A stretch of DNA of 63,834 nucleotides, counting the filler, from Craspedostauros australis (lineage: Eukaryota), in NCBI GenBank assembly GCA_030167865.1. It is 9 parts of 9 records of this genome, joined end to end, with 100 filler letters (N's around TTAATTAATTAA, not from the genome) between each part and the next. Parts side by side here need not be neighbours in the genome. Positions count along the whole stretch, not along the records: positions 17,587 to 40,384 come from JALAGF010004436.1; 8 more parts are not named here. One strand, written 5' to 3'. The position numbers were made by a program, and so were the translations under genes. Positions within the stretch are counted from its first letter, which is position 1. Each line of letters opens with the position of its first letter. This document shows positions 17,487 through 30,641 of the stretch, piece after piece. The notes beneath the pieces are model-generated. The model saw nothing but the letters and a program-made list of their open reading frames with translations. It was not told the DNA's origin and did not search any database.

Positions 17487-18053
17487 NNNNNNNNNNNNNN
17501 NNNNNNNNNNNNNNNNNNNNNNNNNNNNNNTTAATTAATTAANNNNNNNNNNNNNNNNNNNNNNNNNNNNNNNNNNNNNNNNNNNNGTGTTGTGTTGTGC
17601 ATCATGAGTGTGTGCACAAGATTTTGTCGTGTTTCGATCCATTTTCGTCACTTTCGACCGTTTCACTCCAAATTGTTGTTGCTTTGTATTGGAGCGAAAC
17701 CAGTCACGAGGACTCGAATGAGTCACGATCAGCAGTAAACAACAACAACCACAGAAGACTCAACGCAAAAAAAGAGAAACCAAAACACAGAAGACACAAT
17801 CCATCAAACAACACATTGGATACGAACTCATACCCAACTACCGCCACCGTTTCAATACAGACATCGAATTGCCACTCACATTCATCACACAGTGCATGGT
17901 ACTCATATTATACCAATACAAGCTATTGAAGACATACCATCGATATCTCTGCCACAGATAGCTCAGACTGCACACTTCCTTGACAGCCAATCCAACGCCA
18001 ATCGTTCAACGCCAAAAGACAATCGTCCAGCAACCATCGACCATCCTCTCAAA

Positions 18054-19547
18054 ATGGAGAATGTTACGAGCGAAGCACTCATTGATGCTGCCCGTGCAGG
18101 TGACTTGTCAGTGTTTAAGGAATGGAAGAAGCAGAACGAGACACGGAATGAAAGAGTTAATGTCAACCAGGTTAAAGACTGGCTTGGTCAGATTCCCCTT
18201 CATTTGGCATGCCGCAAAGGCCACCTGGAGTGTGTGAAGTACCTCATCGAATCATGTGGGGCCAATGCCGACTGCAAACACAACAATGGTGACACTCCCC
18301 TTCATTGGGCATGCTACAACGGCCACCTGGAGTGTGTGAAGTACCTCATCAAATCAGGTGAGGCGAACATCAACTGCCAAGACAGAAATGGTTGGACTCC
18401 CCTTCATTACGCATGCTGCAACGACCAGCCGGAGTGTGTCAAGTACCTCATTGAATCATGTGAGGCGGACATCAACTGCCAAAACAACCAAGGTGAAACT
18501 CCCCTTCATTGGGCATGCCGCAACAGCCACCCGGAATGTATGGAGTCCCTCATTAGAGGACTTTCGCCTTCAGCTCACCCACAACTGCACCAACTGCAGC
18601 AACGCTTACAACAAAACGAGCAAGAAACTGAACACAAACACAGTACCCACAAGAGGACCAACATCAGCATTGGAGAAGACCGACTCAAATCCTTCTAAAC
18701 CGACAACAGGGCAGACACCATCTTCTTGTGTGGACAGGGCAACTAACAACAACTAACCAAGGCAAACGCCCAAGCCCTCATCATCACACTCCCATCCATT
18801 GAGACACTGATCGACAAAGGAACTCAACTTCACCGCGCGAATGATGACGCTCACGATGGAACTGAACCCATCCAAACAACCATCCCTCTTCCCAATCTTC
18901 AACCAAAACACATCCGATACGTCCTCCAATGCATCTACACAGCCAAGATATCCTTCAATGACAGCGTTCGTGACAACGCTGCTGCTCACGTCAGCGCTCA
19001 CATCGGCGCTCACACCAGCGCTCACCACGATACAGATGCCTCTCACCAGCCAACTCCCACCCTCAATGGACAGGACGATCGGCAACAGCTGATCCTTGTG
19101 GCCGACGAGTTCGGCTTCTGGCGACTCAAGCTTGTTCTTGAAGCAGAGTTGGTCCGCAAGCATCTCACAGAGGACACCATGATAGATGTGTTGATATTCC
19201 CCGATCAACACAACTGCTTGGTGTTGAAGGATGCAGCAATGAGAATGGCAGCTGAAAGTGAGAAGGATACGTTCACTCATCCAGATTTAAGCAAACTGAT
19301 TCTACATCCCCAACTGATGAAAGACATTGATGTCCTCCGTGGTGGGAGAACGGAGAGTGATGGTATTGATGATGAGTATGGTGGCATGTTCATGGTGGAG
19401 CTGCACAAGGTTATAGATGAGGATGAGGGTGCAACACAAGTGGATTCATACATGGATCGGGCAACATTGGTGGACTTCGTCCGCTCTATGACTACCAAAT
19501 CATCCAAAATGATTGAGACGGACGGCGCTGCTGGAGAAGAGGAGTGA
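18054..19547 (+). pseudogene. Ankyrin-repeat + BTB/POZ(-BACK-like) gene with two in-frame TAA stops (18696-18698, 18744-18746)
   Basis: Four 34-aa ankyrin repeats (TPLHWACYNGHLECVKYLI). The same frame continues through the stops into ADTIFLCG...IRYVLQCIYT...LILVADEFGFWRLKLVLEAELV...HNCLVLKDAAM, a BTB-type pattern. Confidence 0.8.
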
Positions 19548-19940: not shown

Positions 19941-22900
19941 CTAGAAACCTTCTGACAGGAAATTGTATGGATTTTCGTACAGACGAATATTCTCGTCTCT
20001 CGTCCTGTACTTGTAGCACCATGTGCGTTCTGCTGGGAACTTGGACGGCCAGTCCTGGCATTCGCAGAATTCCTTGCGGTGCAGCTCCTGGTAGTATTGG
20101 AGAGGACGCGCCAGCCACACAGCTTCGGGGCGATCCTCACGAGGAGCACCGGCTGTGTCTGATTGACAATGCTCGTTGATGCGCCAGGCCATCAACCGCT
20201 CCAGCTCCCTCATCTGATGTGGGGCGACTCGGATGGGATCCTTCATCACGCGCCAATGGACCTTCTCGTAGCACGGTGGCACAGTCTGGGTGCCTTCGTA
20301 CCGGAAGTAGTACTCGGTGCCGACCTTGATCATCCACTCGTACGGCCACCACTGGACGAGGCTGTAGTTCTCGTCGATGCCTTCACCATTGAAGGCAAGA
20401 TTACGCTGAAACTTGTGGAAGATCTCCTCGAAGTACGCCTCGTCATCGAAGTCCTTCGGTATGTCGTTCTCGGAACGCACAATGTAGTCGCCGTGTGACG
20501 TCTCAACGACGACATCGTCGGGACCCAAAGGCCGATCCTCCTGTCTGTAGTACTCCCGAGCTTCATCCTTCGAAAGCTGCCTGGGTCCATGCTCAGGTAG
20601 CTGTGCCATCATGTACGCCTCGTTGATGGTGCTCCGTTGGCGTTCGTGCTCCTCGTAGAGCCGGCGGTTCCTGCCACTACCGGTGTTCGAATCTTTATCG
20701 AGAACGCAGTAGTCCATCATGGTGTTGTCTTCTTCACCACCGCTGCAGCCAGGAACTGGCTCGAAGGGCACCCTGCGCTGATGGCACTTCAGGCCAGGCG
20801 CGCAGTCGGTATCCGTGTCGCAATCTCCGACGCACAGCAAGAGTGGCCGGGAGGTTGGTGGTGGGTTCCATCCCAATGAGATGACTGCCGGCAACGCCAC
20901 GGGGACTGAGGTGGGGTTGGTCGTTGGTGAGGTCGTTGGTGTGCTGGTTGGTGCGCTGGTTGGTTGCGCGGTGGGTTCGGCAGGTCCAGCGGTTGGCACG
21001 GGAACTGGAATGGAGGTGAGGGAGTTGCTTTGTGGTGGCTGGGAAACGATCGTGCGATCCGTATCCACGATGCAATAGTCGGCGAGCAGCTTGTCTTCTT
21101 CTCCACCAGCGCAACCTGGCACCGGGACGAACCCCGTGTTGCGCTGGAAGCAAACCAAGCCCTCCTCGCAGTCGCTGTCCAGATCACAGTCTCCCTGACA
21201 TTCGGTGAGAGTGACTTTGGGGCTCCACCCGATCCACTCCACCCCCAGCGTTTCGGACTGGGTTGGGTTTGATGTCGGTGCACTGGTTGGGGCAGCGCTG
21301 GTTCGAGTTGGTGGTTCCGTCGGATCTTCTGTCGGTGTGTCTGTCGGCACGTCCGTTGGCGACGTGCTTGGAGAGGTGGATGGAACACCACTTGAACTTG
21401 ATGATGGTCCATCCGTAGGCGAAAACGTCGGCGTTGCGGTTGGTTGGCTGGTGGGTGAACTCGTCGGACCAGCGGTTGGTGATTTTGTTGGTGCATCTGT
21501 GGGGAACGCAGTTGGTACCGTTGTTGGTGGGCTCGTCGGACCAGCGGTTGGCGATTTCGTTGGTGCATCTGTGGGTGATGCGGTGGGCAACGCAGTTGGT
21601 ACCGTTGTTGGTGGACTCGATGGGCTTGTGGTGGGCTGTTCGGTTGCCGTTTTGGTTGGCGCCCCGGTCGGAGGGATGGGGTCGATGATGACGAGGTCCG
21701 GATCACGCACGCAGTAGTCGATGAGCGACGGGTCGCTGTCGCCACCAATGCATCCAGGAACATCTGTATATGGTTGATTGCGCTGAAAGCAAATCAAGTC
21801 ATCGTCGCAATCTCCATCATTATCGCAATCACCTTGGCAAGGATTCAATATTTCGGCGGGATTCCACCCGAGCACTTCGAGGGGCTTGGGCTCATAGAGG
21901 TCGTCGTTTCGGTCGTTGCTTGTTGGTGCTTCCGAAGTGTCCGCGGTCGGTTCGCCAGTTGGCCCATTCGTGGGATCATTTGTGGGATCGCTTGTGGGTT
22001 GCGAAGTTGGTTCGCCTGTTGGCTCGCCAGTTGGCCCATTCGTGGGATCGCTTGTGGGCTGCGAAGTTGGTTCGCCTGTTGGCTCGCCAGTTGGCCCATT
22101 CGTGGGATCGCTTGTGGGCTGCGAAGTTGGTTCGCCTCGTGGTGATGATGTTGGAGAGGCAGTCGGTTGCGACGTAGGCGGGTCGGTGGGAAGGGCTGGG
22201 AACGTACAGAAATCGACCACGTTGTTCTCATTCTCGCCATTCAGGCAACCTGGGACGGGGGTCCTCAGGTACAGCCGTTGAAAGCAGATCATTTCGCCTT
22301 TGCAATCCGCGTCGGTATCGCAATCTCCCTGGCATTCATCGAGCGGCGTCTGCGGTGACCACCCAAGATTGGCGACACTCTTCATGCTATCGGAGCGTGG
22401 GAATACCGAGGGTTCTGCAGACGGCAGCACTGTGGCGGTCGGCAAAACGGACGGAAATGCCGTCGAGATCGATGATGGAATGGTCGATGGGAATGCACTC
22501 GGGGAACTAGATGGTTGTGTGGAGTTGCCGATCGTTGGCCAAACGGTTGGCGTTGCACTCGGATTGATGGATGGGCTGTCGCTGTCATTGCTCGTCGGCG
22601 TTGCCGATGGGACGACGGACGGCTTCATCGATGGTGGATTGGTTGGTCCGATCGTGTACCCACTCCCTTTCGGATCCAGAATGCAGTAGTCGCTTTTGGT
22701 ATCATCCACCTCCCCACCGATGCATCCGGGCACGGCTTCGAATTCATCACGTTGGAAGCAGGTGAGGCCCTCAGCGCACTGGACATCGTTGTCGCAATCG
22801 CCTTCGCAGAAGTGCAAGGGAATGACATCCGATGGCGGTGTCCCACCGTAGTCCACGAGCTGTTTCGGTCTGAGTGGTCCAAAGGTCGGCTGAGATGTCA

Positions 22901-24701
22901 CTGTGGGGCTTCCTGTTGGCGGATCGGTCGGCTGGATCCAAGGCTCGTCAGCGTAGGGGTCGAAGATGCAGAAGTCGCTCTTTTTGTCGTACGTCTCACC
23001 GCCGATGCATCCAGGAATTCCCTCGTAGGCGTCGCGGCGGTGGCACATGAGGCCGTTTTCGCAGTCGCTGTTGAAATCGCAGTCCCCCTGACACAACGAC
23101 AGAGGGAGTTTGTCGTCGTCGGGATCACCGCCGAAGTCTTCGATCGGGACGGGATCGGGGGGATCCAACGGGGCCAGCGTGGGGACGTCGAATTCGGAAG
23201 AGTCACCGTTTTCATCTTCGTACAGGTCATCCACTGTGCGTTCTTGACCGCGGTACAGCTCGCAAAACTTGTACACAGGGGCCGGCGGCAATCCGCATTC
23301 TGCTCTCTGCTTCTCCTCCTCTGCCCGGAACTTGCAAATGAGCTTGTCAAGGTATGGCCATGGTGGCTGGTTCTCGTAATCCTGCATGAAGATGGAGATG
23401 TGCCCCATCTTGTTGTTGCTGTTTCTGACGGAATAAAAATGCGCCAGCGTGACTTCCGCGGCGTACCTCTTGCCTTCTTGGGTGTGTTCGCTGGGAACTC
23501 TGATATCGGTCCGTGACAGGAGGAAGAACTTGGGAAATCCCTTGCTATAATCCATCTTGGGATACTTTCTCTCTCCGCTCGGGTTGGCGCAGTTGATGTC
23601 GCCATTGGATAAGGTTGGTGTGTGAATTTGTAGTGCGTGCCTCGATATCTCGAATGAATCTTTCATGTCCTCCCAGTCGCAGGATCCATCCAGATATGAA
23701 ATCCTGTTGTGATTCAGCATGGTATTGCAAGTAGAGTGCATTTGGATAGTGCCATACGTTGAAAGACAGGAGTGGCGGTGATAGTAAGCGAGAGCGTCCG
23801 AAAACAGAGCCAAGAAGTTGTGAGGTTGAGCGATTGCAAGTGTGAGAAACCACACGTTAGTGGTTGTTTCCCTCATGGATCATCACTGTTGCGTAGGAAC
23901 AATTCCAAACGCATGACATGGCATGGCATGAGTTGCATTGTGCGACATCATCATCATCATCATCATCATCACGAACGGGTGTCATACTGCTTGGACGGAG
24001 AGCAGACAATGGGGAACGCACCAATGCCAGTCGCGGCACTCCTTCTCATCGGGATGACCTGCGATGGCGCGGTTGCGATTCAAGTCGATGGGAGATTGAC
24101 GATGTTGTTTGCAGTCTTCACTCCTATCTTCGGGACACCATCGGCATCGATTTCCGGGGAAGCTCCAGCCCTTTGCGTGCTCGAAATAATTCGGCCAGCC
24201 GGGCTGCACGTTTGTTGGGATGAGGAGTGTTTGAGGCATCGGTCGTGTCCGTGCATTGCGAAGCGGTCGAAAAGACGAGATGCGGCAAAATAAAGGAGAT
24301 CAAAATAGAGTGGAGTAGATTCGAAGACGTGTGAGTTTGGAGAAGGGTGATGGAATCAGGAGATGGTGGCGGAGTTCGTGATGGTCACACACGCGTCCCA
24401 TATGACGTTGTTGATTGCCTGTTCGAGAATGTGGCACTCTTGAGAGAGAAAGAGAGAGAGAGAGGCCGAGAGACCACGCCATTTGTATTCACAGCCAAGA
24501 TCACACCGTGGTATTCTTCAGCATGTTCGTGTCACGTACGCAGGTTCCAACGCCGCTGTTACAGCTGACTTCGTCCCAGTCTTCGGGTCCGAAATCATTC
24601 CCTGTCGTTGCCAAGTAATTGAATTGGTCTTCTGCTGCGTACACGGCGCTATGCGGTGCCCACAGGAGCGCAGCGAATGCGCTTCCAATCAAGATTCTCA
24701 T
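19941..24701 (-). CDS. Secreted alpha-carbonic-anhydrase-fold protein (likely acatalytic) split by six frustulin ACR domains, 1368 aa; exons 24701-24540, 24203-24022, 23703-19941
   Basis: Signal peptide MRILIGSAFAALLWAPHSAVYA. CA motifs GPEDW, QSPIDL, PSEHTQEGKRYAAEVTLAH, YFRYEGTQTVPPCYEKVHWRVMKDPI and RPLQ. Six C(Q/E/V)GDCD..C..C.(Q/R)R..PGC..D(F/Y)C domains. Two GT-AG introns keep the frame. Confidence 0.9.
21946..22137 (-). repeat. Coding 60-bp tandem repeat, about 3 copies (PTSQPTSDPTNGPTGEPTGE)
   Basis: Sequence at 22021 and 22081 is nearly identical at a 60-nt offset; the third copy has a 12-nt addition. Confidence 0.9.
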
Positions 24702-26331
24702 TCTGTAGTCGTCGTTGCTTGGTTGTTCGACCTCTTCTTGATTCCTTCAGTTGCGCAGCGCAATGAGAAAAGGAAAGAGCGCGATGTCGATGTTGATGAC
24801 TCTCCGTGGTCGTCTTCTGTTCTTCGAATCGTTCTGTCACTCTGTGAAATAAGTGACGAGAAGGTTGTGGATGTTCGATTTCGATGTGCTATCACTGACG
24901 CTGACACTGACGCTGAATAGCTGATGTCTCTGCCAGGGTCACAGGTGCTTCACAATCGTGCCCGGTCGACGCAACGATGCTGATTCGATGATGTTGATAG
25001 GATGATCTCGATACTGCGGATATGAGTGTTTGGATTGGTGCTGTATGGCACAAGTGCTCCGATCGTCCCCTCCTGCTATGTTCGTCGTCGTCAAGTGAGA
25101 CTTGGTCTCTTTGAATCAACCAAATATTGGTGGTGTGTTGCTGCCTCTCCTACTGCTCGATGTCGTGGCAAATTTACACACGATTGCTGCCAACACACTC
25201 GGATTGCAGTCCTATCATGTGCTGTGGCAACTCTCAATGCCCAACCTCCTTCTGTTATTGCCGAGTTGTGGTCGTGTTGCACGATGGAATGATGAATCAA
25301 TGTGCGTGGGCTGTGTTGGAGGTGCACGTTGCTGAGTTGTTGTTCAAGTGGGATGATGGGAGAGCACCATTGCATTCGCTTTCTTTCCCGTCATTTCCTT
25401 TCTTTTCGGGAGGGGTGTGGTGACACGAACATGTGTCGCGAAATCAGCGCAAAACGACGCAAGTGCGGCCGCAACTTGGCGCATCGTCTGACTTTCCAAA
25501 GTGCTCGGCAGGCGTGCCTATCGTGTCTTTGGACACGCGGGCAACAAGACAGTTAGATGTTGTTTACTGCCGCCATAAGTATTAATTCCGTCGTCTTTGT
25601 TCGAAAAGCTCTGCTTGGCTCACACTCATGTGTGTGGAAGAGAAATGTGAGCTCCTCCCATCGCCGATTCTTGTTCCAACCAACGTGCCGACTCGCATTT
25701 CCAGTGACTCGTGCCTTCATTTGAACCGACCTTGCAACGGTTCACCAAATTCAACCGTTACGTTCGCTCCATTCAAATCTATTGATTTCCAAGCATTCCA
25801 GTTTTAGTCACATGAGTCATAAATCGATTGATTTAGACTCATACGAGTACACGAAGTAGTCCTTCTTGTCTTGGCGAGTTCGCGCCATTTTCTTTGGACA
25901 ACTTCGCCGGCGCAACAACACTTGGAAAGGGCGGACCACGCAGACAGTCAAAAAGCACGACAAACAACGAGGTAAGCAACAACCAGGCGATTTTGTTTGC
26001 GCTGTTGGCGATTGCGCGTGAATTCACACACAAGAAAAAGCAAAAAACTCCATCCAACACACTGCCCACAAACACGGTACAACACGACGCAACAACGGGA
26101 TCACAAGTGGAGGCTTCAAGAGCATCAAGGCATCAGAGCAACGATCTGGCCTGACATTGTGCGCAACTAGCATCAACAAGCGGCAAGTGGCAAGCGGCAA
26201 GTTGCACGGCTCCACCTTTGTCTTGCAACATCGTCGTGGCGTTGACTCGGCCTGTGTAGTGTGCACCATCTCGCTTCTCTGTTGGTGTACCGGCACCATA
26301 CTTGTCCGTTGTCACCGAAACATCCAACAGC

Positions 26332-29300
26332 ATGAAGACAAAGGACAAGACGAAGGTCGCCTTGTTCCGAGGCATCGTCCTCAAGGATGTCAAATCCGCC
26401 CTTGCCAAGTCGAAGGAGCTGGGAGGGGACCAGGCACGGCTCGAAGTCACAGACAAGGACATCTACGTCGGCGATGGCAATTGGAAGATCTCATGGAAAT
26501 CCGTCACCGACGTCCATTTCATTATGCCCGACAGCGAACATGGTGATTTCCTCGGCATGGAAGATTCTGTGGAACGCGGTGACGTCAACGACAGTGACGA
26601 CAATGGCAATCATAGGGACCAGTCTGGCATCGATGTCACCAACGCCATGGGATTCAGGCTGGACGCCAAAAAGTACATCCTCACAGCAGAGGGCGTGATG
26701 GATCGTCGCACGCTGCAGCTGATGCGTTTCGTCCACGCGCGTTGGCAGAAGATTCTGCGCAAGCAGCAGAAACGCATCGAGGAAGAGGAACGTCGCGAAC
26801 GGCAGGAGCAGAGAGATGAACGCCAGCGGCGCCAGGATCGCATGATGTCGTCGCGTGGGCTCTACCAATCCAAGCAGAGCCGTAAGATGAACCACTTCCT
26901 CAACGCCAATCGGCAGAACATGGAGATCAACCGACAGCACGTTGAGAATTGGGAAGATGCAGAGGACGATGTTGCCATAGTTCCGGACGATGCTCACGCA
27001 GAAGTGGACGAGAAGGCGGCGGAGGAAGGCTCTGATGCATCGCACGCAGTCGCAGATATCGATGTCACGCAGACCAATAGCAGCGGCGACAACGAGAGCA
27101 ACAAAAAGGCAGCCGACGATTCCCTCATCGTAAGCACCAAGCATGTCAACGATGGTGGCGACGATGGTGGCAACGACGACGACGACGACGACGATGAGCA
27201 TGAGTTCATGGGAGATGACGAACTTGATGCCTCTCCATCAGATTTGCTCAAGGCAAACGAGCACGATGGAAGCAGCACGAGGGGAGCCCAAACCGCCGAG
27301 ACTTCCGATGCTCCGTCGACACCGGACCGAAAGCAACTGAAGAAGAAGAACAAGAAGAAACGAGGAAGTAGTGCTGATGGGGAACCGGACGGAGACAAGC
27401 CGAAACGCAGACGCAGATTGGTGCGAAATCGTGGTCGAATCTCCGACGACACGGACGAGGATGACGACGAGGATGCACATTTGTTCGATTCGCCACCGAT
27501 GACCACGCCGCAGCGTGGACAGCGCATCGTGTCTCCATTCACCGGCACTCGTCTCTTCCAAAACGACGACGACGACGAAGATGACGACAACGACAACGAA
27601 GATGAGGACAACCACGAAGGTGTGGTCGTCCACGGTGTCCACGGTGTCCGTGATGACGCCACCGCGACACACACCCACAATGAAGACCACAACATCGAGG
27701 GACAACGCACCAGCAATGAAACCATCAGCAAAAACGAGCCAACAGCTGCGTCAAAGCCCGAAGCGAAAAGGAGTGCCAAAGCAACATCCAAACTCAATCG
27801 CAAGTCCAAGTCAAAATCCACAAAAGACGCGGAGATCAATGTCAAGAAGACAAACAAATCATCAGCGAGGGATACAGGCACAGCACTTGCCAGCCTTGGC
27901 GCAAAGGAAGGACAAAGCAAGGGCCAGAAGAGCATCATGAACTACTTCGGCACGCCCAAGACGATTGCCCGACCGAAACTGCAACCGAAACCCATGAACT
28001 TGCTGCCAACAGTTTGCACGAACGGGAACAGACAAGATGGGACGCACACTTGCGACCATCTTCTCGTGTCGTCAACCGAACCAACTGATGAGACAGAAGC
28101 CACCGATGATACATCGGACACGACGCAAGAACATGGTGAGCCTCAAGATCATGCCGGTCAACAAGAGCAGGAACTCCAACAGAAAACACGCTCCCACCAT
28201 CCTTTCTTTGCTCCACGATCTACTGTGGGCAAGCCGCAGATCAGTACGAACGATGTTGATGACAAGAGTGATTTGTCCGATACTTCGCAGGAGGCGGACC
28301 ACGAGCAGGGGGTTGTCAACGAATTGACACTGCAAGCCTCGGATGGAGAAAGCAGCGACGAAATCAGTGACTTTGAAGAGATCAATCTGGATCCAAATCA
28401 TGGAACTGGAGGCGAAGATACCGGCAACCACCTTGGCGGCATCAGTGCGAGCGATGCTGATGATCAGATCAACGATGACGACAATGGCGATCATGACGAG
28501 GATGCCACAGAAACACCCAACTTCGATGAAGCCATCGATGGCGATAGCGTCGGCGGCAGCAGCGGTAGATCGACGGTTGCAAGTGGTACCCATTCCCTGA
28601 TCAGCATGTTGTCCGGTCAGCTGAGGCAATCCTCGTTGTCCTCCGCACCGCCTTTCAGCGACGCAGGATCATCTCGCACAACCTCCGCGAATGCATCTCC
28701 CCAACGATCCGTCCATCATTCATCTCCATCTCGATATGACATGCCCAGCATCCATGGCGAATCTACTGCTGCTAACGACGATGGTGATGATGATCATGAT
28801 CATGGTCTTGACAACCACGACGGCGGCAACAGCAACGGTAACGGTAACAACAGCAGCGACCATCACGACCATGAGGAAAATGATGACACTGTGGGACCTG
28901 AGGACCCTGTTGCCAACAGGAAACGAACCAGCACCATGTTCTCACGACCTTCGCAACCCAGCAGCGCTCTCGGAACCATCAAGAACCGCTTCAAACGACC
29001 GCGTATTGCGAGGGGCAAGCCAATCGCAACGCCCAAGGCATCACGGGCCATCAACTTCAATCCTGCGGACACTTGCAGGCGCGTTCTTGGCGATGACCGG
29101 AACGATGAAGTTGACAACGAACACCAAACGCAACCTGAGCAATTCAGACACACGCAAGAACCAACCAAGTCCAAAACACGAAAGCTTGCGCGTCAGCCTC
29201 GGAACAACTCTGTTTCCAGATACCTTTCACCCACGTCGCGGTCGCCAGTGCGCGACTCGTTACACACCGTCTTTGCCTCTCGCCCCCAACTCGAAACCAT

Positions 29301-30641
29301 CATCAGTCGGTGGCGGGGATTGGCTAACTTTGGCAATGCTTGTTACATGAACGCATCCATGCAGATGTTGTGCAGCTTGTCGCCATTTGCCAAATCCCTG
29401 GAGGTGTGCAGCACCAAGGTTCACAAGCAATTCCCAGTTGCTAGTCAGGTGTCGATGGTGATGAAACGCCTGGAGGTTCCATTCTCACGTACCACGGCCA
29501 CGTGCCGGCAGCTCAAGGCCGCGTTGGACAAGAAGACGGACAAGTTCCGTGGCTACCTGCAACGTGACGCGCACGAGTTCGTGGATGAGTTGCTGGATCA
29601 GATCCATGAAGAGCTGTCGCCAAAGAAGAAGCAAGAGGATGAGGTCGGCAATGATGGCAGTGATAACGGCAATGGTGGATCAAATGAAGAAAAGAATGAT
29701 GGTGCCAAGTCCGCTCAAGAGCAGGCTCCATCCCAAACGAACGATGCGATCATCGCAAGCAAGACCGTCGATGACCACTTCCGCCTTGATATCGAAGTGT
29801 GCCTGACCTGCACATGCTGCGGCTTCCACCGCACGAAGGAGGAAACCTACCGATACCTCTCAATCGACATTGCTGATGACGATGACAGTGAGAGCGATGC
29901 GACGACGATGGAGCCAAACGCAAGGTTGCAACGTTCCGTGAAGGAATGCTTGGCACGCTTCTTCCAGCCCGAGGAACGTGAAATCAACTGCGAGAAATGC
30001 GAAGAAGGCAAGACGGCGTTGCAAACCATGAAGGTGTTATCCAGGTACGTTCCGTCCAATCGAACACAGAGTCCAACAAAAGCATGGCGGATGTTGGTCT
30101 TTGTTTGTTGCTGCGATCGTGGCTTGATTTGATTTGGTGTATCATTGCTCTTTGCCGTACTGTGGTGCACACGCAAATACCTCACGATCTTCCTCCGTTC
30201 CCTCCCCTCGCATGATCCACACATCGAACTCCACTTGACCGAATCCACAACAGACCCAAGGCGCTGCTCCTCCATCTGAAACGCTTCGGAATTGTGGAAC
30301 GTCACATTCCTTCCCTCCACGGCCCTTCGTCCATGCAGTACGTTGTACAAAAGAACAAATCGGCCATCCGCCTGACCTCGCAGTTGTCGTTGGATCCGTT
30401 CCGCGATGCGACCGAAGACAACAAAGGATACTACATCAGATCCATCGTGCATCACGAAGGATCGACGGCCAACTCGGGACATTACACTGCCGATGCCGTG
30501 CGCGAGGATGAGGACGGCGACATGCAGTGGGTGAGCTTTGACGATGGGCGCGTGCACAAGTCGTCGCCGGAGCATATTCTGAGGGATGCGTCGAAGCAGA
30601 AGACAGCGTACATGTTGCTGTACAGCTTGTTCGATGATTGA
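26332..30641 (+). CDS. Ubiquitin-specific protease (peptidase C19) with long acidic/disordered N-terminal region; exons 26332-30044 and 30254-30641
   Basis: Cys box GLANFGNACYMNASMQ, QRDAHEF, Zn-ribbon CTCC/CEKC, spliced SRPKALLLHLKRF, His box IVHHEGSTANSGHY, WVSFDD and AYMLLY. Start codon uncertain. Confidence 0.92.

Follow-up and report, generated by a model that had tools for sequence, protein, structure and literature searches.

A gene for a carbonic anhydrase fold split by ACR repeats

We analysed a stretch of 63,834 nucleotides of DNA from the diatom Craspedostauros australis (hereafter the window), of which positions 17587-40384 were assigned to contig C4436 by genome search; the remainder consists of N or of other contigs, and gene neighbourhood outside these positions is unreliable. 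The minus strand of this contig carries a gene for a protein with an alpha-carbonic anhydrase (alpha-CA) fold that is split by six frustulin-type ACR repeats and in which, on alignment, all three zinc-binding histidines are replaced. On balance we favour the view that it is a secreted, zinc-less member of a diatom clade with an acidic residue at position 94 (the Asp94 clade), which would have a non-catalytic binding or scaffold role at the cell surface and would not be a CO2-concentrating enzyme.

A minus-strand open frame of 1,312 codons (19941-23879) holds the metal-site stretch, and the full gene consists of three exons (24701-24540, 24203-24022 and 23703-19941) encoding 1,368 amino acids (aa) with a sole stop at the end; both introns, of 336 and 318 nucleotides (nt), are GT-AG. 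Across both junctions the spliced N-terminus lines up collinearly with three relatives, including the transcript-derived P0005 (160/251 aligned positions identical), and a fourth relative, P0032, has gene-model insertions at both intron positions. The gene is whole and conserved, and a pseudogene or frameshift is ruled out by the intact three-exon frame and the collinearity with relatives. A Pfam scan found PF00194 in the C-terminal part (E 1e-13) and PF04886 PT repeats mid-protein (E 3e-25). In a hydrophobicity profile of the 1,368-aa translation, strong hydrophobicity is confined to the N-terminus (19-aa mean 1.44 at residue 3), so the protein probably has a signal peptide and enters the secretory route; the same profile contains no membrane anchor or hydrophobic tail. 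The features of the gene are as follows.

24540..24701, minus strand: exon 1, with the start codon, a signal-peptide-like N-terminus (about aa 1-23) and the first CA-fold residues (gene model, hydrophobicity)
24204..24539, minus strand: intron 1, 336 nt, GT-AG (collinear with transcript-derived P0005 over the junction; insertion of P0032 at the same spot)
24022..24203, minus strand: exon 2, carrying the QSPID motif of alpha-CAs (gene model and weak PF00194 match, E 0.025)
23704..24021, minus strand: intron 2, 318 nt, GT-AG, phase 2 (gene model, collinear relatives)
19941..23703, minus strand: exon 3, with the remaining CA N-half, the 852-aa insert, a spacer, the C-half and the stop (gene model)
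23637..23639, minus strand: histidine at the proton-shuttle position (64), retained (alignment of relatives)
23439..23513, minus strand: remodelled metal site with R92 (23513-23511), D94 (23507-23505), R96 (23501-23499), E106 (23489-23487), E117, T119 (23450-23448), A121 and H122 (alignments)
20667..23222, minus strand: whole insert (aa 276-1127, 852 aa), six ACR repeats joined by linkers rich in Pro, Thr and Ser, P 16%, T 13%, S 10%, D 10% (PF04886 E 3e-25, composition)
22968..23093, minus strand: frustulin-type ACR repeat 1, CQGDCD...IPGC...DFC (motif)
22683..22808, minus strand: ACR repeat 2, CEGDCD...VPGC (motif)
22206..22334, minus strand: ACR repeat 3, CQGDCD...VPGC (motif)
21711..21839, minus strand: ACR repeat 4, CQGDCD...VPGC (motif)
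21072..21200, minus strand: ACR repeat 5, CQGDCD...VPGC (motif)
20706..20834, minus strand: ACR repeat 6, CVGDCD...VPGCSG (motif)
20658..20666, minus strand: RxL motif (RRL) directly after the last ACR repeat, putative processing site (motif, relatives)
20397..20405, minus strand: RxL motif (RNL) just ahead of the C-half, putative processing site (motif, relatives)
20271..20294, minus strand: GTQTVPPC loop with Q198, T199 (kept), V200 and C203 (Pfam, alignment, profile)
19944..20396, minus strand: C-half of the CA fold with W209, then a Cys-rich C-terminal extension (PF00194 E 1e-13, profile and fold matches)

The split architecture, a CA domain interrupted by six ACR repeats and flanked by conserved RxL motifs, was passed over in a preliminary description of the locus. 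The repeats are about 43 aa each, with CQGDCD exact in four and VPGC in five; two hexapeptides of this kind (CQGDCD-type and VPGC) define the ACR domains of frustulins in passages of PMC4712521, and PMC4557024 describes such domains as Ca2+ binding and as part of the outer organic coat. PMC4712521 lists five frustulin features and asks for three of them; the window protein has the ACR domains and the proline-rich domains, and its hydrophobic N-terminus may correspond to a third, a pre-sequence with an ER signal and SPII; neither its translation nor its Pfam scan contains polyglycine or tryptophan-rich (ricin-type) domains. When two ACR repeats were folded without an alignment, a predicted local distance difference test (pLDDT) score of 39 was obtained, and an ESM Atlas search returned only unnamed clusters, mostly from diatoms. 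An RxL motif follows the last ACR repeat in 28/28 ACR-bearing relatives having both halves and lies 15-40 aa ahead of the C-half strand in 154/157 relatives having both halves, counts that are inflated by shared descent. RxL was proposed as a general diatom processing motif (PMC4557024).

In a model of the close relative P0005 (R92/D94/K96/T119), folded from a 91-row alignment as a stand-in for the window protein, the two halves come together as one alpha-CA domain. The mean pLDDT of the model is 79; values are low in the linkers, and most of both halves and of the ACR repeats reach about 90 or more. Foldseek found 157 matches with E of at most 0.001; VIA-align placed the model on 4xz5 with Z 21.6 and a root-mean-square deviation of 2.7 for 227 residues over model range 19-1111, and on the CA-like domain of PTPRG (3jxg) with Z 21.0, all 50 rows lying at Z 20.7-21.6. 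Such a match of a predicted model does not separate active CAs from CA-like domains and so says nothing on activity. At the sequence level, a profile of 72 relatives matched 192 solved sequences, and all 60 shown are alpha-CAs or CA-like domains.

The former zinc site and its conservation

Positions 23439-23510 of the minus strand translate to TDIRVPSEHTQEGKRYAAEVTLAH. Residues are given in human CAII numbering, including 64 as the proton shuttle, which we take from the preliminary description and from general knowledge and not from a residue-level superposition. The N-half aligns ungapped with KQFHFHAPSEH...EMHLVH of the solved bacterial alpha-CA 4x5s, a match that is weak on its own (best E 0.39). 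A clade profile aligned by hhalign with the four His-triad paralogues of the same genome, again ungapped over QFHIHTSSEH...ELHTVH (probability 96%, E 2e-9), pairs Q-F-H-I-H of the paralogues with R-T-D-I-K of the clade. Because the loop after position 96 differs in length among CAs, the register itself was tested. It is fixed by the relatives that keep H96 and by the four normal His-triad anhydrases. A shift by two residues, making R/D/T or H/E/H the triad, is ruled out, since 90/117 short relatives have a histidine two positions after the aspartate.

By frame reading, hhalign and the register of the relatives, the three zinc histidines are thus replaced, by D94, R96 and T119, in agreement with the preliminary description. 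Its further statements that the equivalents of Glu106 and Thr199 are kept and that the loop of the latter reads GTQTVPPC (20294-20271) also hold, and W209 and the histidine at 64 are present as well. Compared with the canonical loop, T199 is kept, L198 has become Q and T200 has become V; the CO2 pocket positions, A121, I143, Q198 and W209, are partly altered in the alignment. As only one ligand-capable residue remains at 94/96/119, there are too few ligands for zinc, and we regard it as very probable that the protein holds no zinc at the canonical site and does not hydrate CO2 in the manner of a conventional zinc CA. The preliminary description had gone further and called the domain acatalytic: the loss of the conventional zinc enzyme stands, supported by 36/37 ACR-bearing relatives without any triad histidine, and general inactivity is inferred from the sequence.

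One protein search yielded 52 relatives for the long form (N-half identity 42-75%) and a second one 188 for the insert-free paralogue L002, the best 120 of these being used; the N-half motif was readable in 168/172, and the other four were left out. Histidine occurs at position 94 in 0/168 and aspartate or glutamate in 166/168, and the exact D/R/T set is found in 0/168. Of the 37 ACR-bearing relatives, 33 have D and 3 have E at position 94; position 96 is K in 24, S in 7, T in 4, V in 1 and H in 1, and position 119 is S in 16, K in 8, T in 6, V in 6 and Q in 1, so that a single ligand-capable residue is present at 94/96/119 in 35/37. D/H/Q (82) and D/K/Q (17) predominate in the 117 short forms, five of which have D/H/H, one of these from P. 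tricornutum; all 117 carry His92. A histidine at 64 is present in 114/120 short, 13/14 long and 28/38 ACR-bearing forms, the four His-triad paralogues having threonine at the aligned position. E106 is retained in 117/117 short and 34/37 ACR-bearing forms and T199 in 118/118 and 29/29, respectively; in the sister clade of long forms T199 is lost in 13/14 and E106 in 4/14. The ACR clade has Q or M at 198 and V at 200. In a profile search clustered to 50%-identity representatives, the best 150 of 1,262 hits gave 62 motif matches, of which a false one (P0271) was dropped; among the remaining 61, position 94 is D or E in 59/61 and His in 0/61, and position 96 is K in 23 and H in 22. By this comparison the acid at 94 is the only conserved element of the altered triad, and the loss of the histidines is old and clade-wide. 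The preliminary description had called for a check of conservation of the D/R/T set, and D/R/T as a conserved new site is ruled out by its absence from all 168.

In a quick tree of 68 rows (17/28 ACR-bearing, 14/14 long and 29/115 short relatives), the window gene and the diatom His-less alpha-CAs form a 62-row group apart from the four His-triad paralogues, with a Shimodaira-Hasegawa-like approximate likelihood ratio (SH-aLRT) of 99 and long outer branches; on these sequences the window protein belongs to the diatom His-less (Asp94) alpha-CA clade. The ACR-bearing forms and the window gene make up a single clade within it (18 rows, SH-aLRT 99), and therefore the insertion occurred once.

Positions 96 and 119 vary in a linked way. 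In the ACR clade, window included, 33/38 rows have a basic residue at one of the two positions, 96 in 25 rows and 119 in 8; K/R at both positions is found in 0/169 rows, and 11/11 K119 rows have S, T or V at 96; the Fisher tests applied to this pattern treat the rows as unrelated. The K119 rows lie in two separate clades, which forces two changes, and a one-clade hypothesis was rejected (approximately unbiased test, p-AU 6e-8) in a test on quick trees for which the group was named after the first tree was seen and the trait columns were kept in. This swap, having arisen twice, suggests an Asp-cation pair in the zinc site, two events being few. In the short clade, positions 64, 92, 94, 106, 199 and 209 are conserved at 0.96-1.0 compared to a median of 0.84.

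Two groups of relatives differ in ways that touch the metal site. In 8/14 of the long, ACR-free sister forms (P0043, P0044, P0046-P0048, P0050, P0051 and P0054), H92/E94/T96/H119 is combined with Met199, and a shifted metal site made of His92, Glu94 and His119 may be present. P0208, P0249, P0342 and P0123 have E/H/H or D/H/H triads; zinc binding is possible in these, and they are the best candidates for leftover activity in the clade.

Candidate roles of the window protein

Under the favoured reading of a secreted zinc-less scaffold, the Arg96 side chain (Lys96 or Lys119 in relatives) would rather probably pair with Asp94 in the place of Zn2+ and keep the pocket folded; Arg92 would add a second cation. 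The protein is likely to follow the secretory route and to be displayed in the outer organic coat, where its ACR repeats would bind Ca2+ as in frustulins. There is about an even chance that both RxL motifs are cut, so that a spacer of some 90 aa is lost and the protein then consists of two chains. More tentatively, the cationic pocket or surface might bind a partner of negative charge, for which a polysaccharide or another protein of the coat is the likeliest candidate; the wider list of ligands in the preliminary description (ion, silicic acid, glycan or partner protein) is not supported as it was put. By analogy with the CARPs (the carbonic anhydrase-related proteins of animals), a binding or scaffold module would be the most likely role.

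Several observations weigh against this reading. In the ACR clade the conservation of positions 96, 119 and 121 is 0.79, 0.55 and 0.72 compared to 0.97 for the median column, which does not suit a tight small-ligand site, and 5/38 rows have no K/R at 96 or 119. A pure scaffold would not need E106, T199 and W209, which the ACR clade keeps, nor H64, H92, D94, E106, T199 and W209, which the short clade keeps above the median. ACR repeats adjoin enzyme domains too, so their presence is no sign of a dead enzyme. In P. tricornutum, two alpha-CAs were located in the periplastid compartment and not at the surface, according to PMC3101018. The structure model is that of a stand-in with K96.

The protein might instead catalyse other chemistry, with Arg or Lys at 96/119 standing in for Zn2+ and His64, Glu106 and Thr199 aiding a slow metal-free conversion of CO2 and bicarbonate or another hydrolysis at the cell surface, or with a metal site built from Asp94, Glu106 and His64. 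We consider this unlikely. Metal-free CAs of another class do exist, and the retention of E106, T199 and, in most rows, His64 in the short forms and of T199 in the ACR-bearing ones, together with the ACR repeats that adjoin enzyme domains elsewhere in the genome, speak for it, as do members with D/H/H or E/H/H (5/117 short forms, and 3/61 representatives among the best 150 of 1,262 hits). A title in the reference list of PMC10175565 refers to a His2Asp zinc site engineered in CAII. Against it stand the changes of L198 to Q/M and of T200 to V in the ACR clade, the sister clade with its losses of T199 and E106, the free variation of 96 and 119, and the window protein itself, in which no triad histidine is left; moreover, E106, E117 and T199 are also structural in the CA fold. 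A wider form of the idea, in which the whole Asp94 clade would consist of zinc-independent alpha-CA-fold catalysts or binders of bicarbonate or other anions, with Lys/Arg at 96 or 119 replacing Zn2+ and the ACR branch displaying the site on the cell surface, appears quite unlikely. It is likewise improbable that the protein is a non-catalytic accessory of the carbon-concentrating mechanism (CCM) at the plastid periphery, in the periplastid space or the chloroplast endoplasmic reticulum, where it would bind bicarbonate or organise active CAs and transporters. P. tricornutum alpha-CAs are described in plastid envelope compartments (PMC3101018, PMC7215798), the mRNA of alpha-CA-VII drops in the dark (PMC7378808), the D/H/H protein P0123 of P. 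tricornutum falls within the Asp94 clade, and a signal peptide is compatible with this route; however, six ACR repeats on long Pro/Thr linkers are traits of outer-coat frustulins, and the ACR forms lie in a clade apart from P0123.

That the cationic pocket handles silica by binding silicic acid or silica itself we regard as very unlikely. Frustulin repeats occur together with RxL motifs like those of silaffins and cingulins (PMC4557024), and in nacrein, as a precedent, an insert that interacts with mineral splits the CA domain (PMC4066178); however, frustulins attach after silica formation and are not thought to form silica (PMC4557024), a preprint on the silica proteome of three species (bioRxiv 2021.09.18.460806) has 0 matches for 'anhydrase' or 'frustulin' in its main text, and the insert is without the Lys/Ser-rich composition of silaffins. 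Finally, an artefact through misalignment, sequencing error or a decaying pseudogene has a negligible chance: the weak direct match of the N-half to solved CAs (E 0.39) speaks for it, an RNA look-up over positions 23200-24750 that listed nothing weighs neither way, and the idea is countered by the intact 1,368-aa frame, by the 52 relatives at 42-75% identity over the N-half, by the acid at 94 throughout the clade and by the agreement of profile and fold matches.

Related proteins and the counting of diatom carbonic anhydrases

According to a review (PMC9570166), no putative alpha-CA of either P. tricornutum or T. pseudonana carries all three histidines, and its authors doubt how these proteins are classified; zinc-less diatom alpha-CAs are therefore already known, and the loss of histidines is not particular to the window gene. 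These proteins (Tachibana 2011 and Samukawa 2014, cited in PMC9570166) resemble the window protein in the acid at 94, the incomplete triad, the probable signal peptide, the RxL-flanked spacer and the Cys-rich extensions. The nearest named relatives are P. tricornutum XP_002178310.1, N. inconspicua KAG7370840.1 and F. cylindrus OEU13118.1. The split architecture recurs in KAG7370840.1, with four ACR repeats, whereas XP_002178310.1 keeps H96 and H119 and has no ACR repeats, compared to no triad histidine and six repeats in the window protein.

In CARPs the alpha-CA fold is without the complete set of zinc histidines, Arg and Gln commonly standing there instead (R-H-Q, PMC4981384); as at least one zinc histidine is missing from its fold, the window protein would count as a CARP in the functional sense. 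It shares the fold without a full triad with CARP VIII, X and XI, with cnidarian CARPs and with the CA-like domains of PTPRG and PTPRZ; unlike in animal CARPs, the cation stands at 96 or 119 (across the clade) beside Asp94 and not at 94, and the domain is split by a large insert. Orthology to animal CARPs is not supported, given the triad D-R-T compared to R-H-Q and the diatom origin of the named relatives, as judged without a tree of animal CARPs, and we infer a diatom CARP-like form of independent origin. With frustulins (Cylindrotheca alpha-, Navicula epsilon- and Fistulifera) it has in common multiple ACR domains with CQGDCD and VPGC, proline-rich linkers and a signal-like N-terminus; unlike these, it is without a polyglycine or Trp-rich/ricin domain and carries the repeats inside a CA-fold domain. 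Nacrein of pearl oysters is likewise a secreted alpha-CA domain broken by a low-complexity insert (PMC4066178), but nacrein-like proteins keep three histidines and activity, and their insert is Gly-X-Asn or acidic and not made of folded Cys-rich repeats. The literature searched contained no account of the ACR-split form, of the spacer between RxL motifs or of the 96/119 swap, the primary papers (Tachibana 2011, Samukawa 2014, Kroger frustulin) being outside its coverage, and no CA-frustulin fusion appeared in the titles or abstract openings of papers on diatom, carbonic anhydrase and frustulin.

Genome-wide, 43 ACR matches were found, six of them in the window gene; elsewhere they adjoin exons resembling PhoX (2/3 above the cut-off), trypsin (above the cut-off) and ricin lectin (below the cut-off), links that are drawn from adjacency. 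On this basis the ACR repeat looks like a mobile tether for secreted proteins. Three adjacent genes at L030 and L031 (G000 C2670:17500-34500) have ACR repeats before a PhoX-like alkaline phosphatase exon and are candidate wall-tethered phosphatases, at L034 (G000 C5673) a trypsin-like exon lies upstream of a PT linker and an ACR repeat, and the ACR and ricin-lectin-like protein at L035 (G000 C6047) resembles a typical frustulin.

A search of the genome with PF00194 gave nine matches in eight genes, four with the His triad and four without (the window gene, L002, L007 and L010). The alpha-CAs with a full His triad, L003, L004, L005 and L006 (G000 C5530, C1400, C6492 and C1525), are unlike those of the two model diatoms (PMC9570166) and, by their residues, can supply normal activity. 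L003 has a signal-peptide exon, L003 and L005 have hydrophobic tails like glycosylphosphatidylinositol signals, and each of the four has an RxL motif in the loop that holds the insert in the window gene. Without the triad, L002:1144-2841 (plus strand) and L007/L025 (minus strand) have H92/D94/K96/Q119, and L010:475-1581 (plus strand) has E94/H96/Q119; because L007 and L010 sit on long branches, diatoms may have had the acid at 94 for a very long time. As for the neighbours of the window gene, one (26260-30132, plus strand) encodes a ubiquitin C-terminal hydrolase (PF00443, E 7e-20) whose long N-terminus is acidic and of low complexity, and no link to the CA-like gene was seen; at 17739-19547 (plus strand) lie an ankyrin-repeat frame and, after it, a weak BTB/BACK-like one, in convergent orientation to the CA-like gene.

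The warning in the preliminary description that a carbonic anhydrase label would miscount such a protein in the CCM was a fair one. P0027, an ACR-bearing D/K/S protein of N. inconspicua, bears the database name 'Eukaryotic-type carbonic anhydrase'; the genome paper of this species takes the 11 alpha-CA loci that it counts to indicate a strong CCM (PMC8329260), and a survey covering 31 diatom strains also counts alpha-CAs among the genes of the CCM (PMC5853954), with 0 matches for 'histidine' or 'zinc' in its main text. Counts of this kind are used to argue for stronger or more diverse CCMs in diatoms, and they can be inflated about twofold, since 4/8 PF00194 genes here are without the His triad. 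The ACR-split form points to a role in the cell coat. Should the Asp94 clade prove to work without a metal, inorganic carbon would be handled in zinc-poor water by an old fold that has dispensed with it, and activity of this kind would represent a new catalytic mechanism on the best-studied CA fold; the 96/119 Lys swap offers a sharp and cheap test of such a replacement of zinc by a cation.

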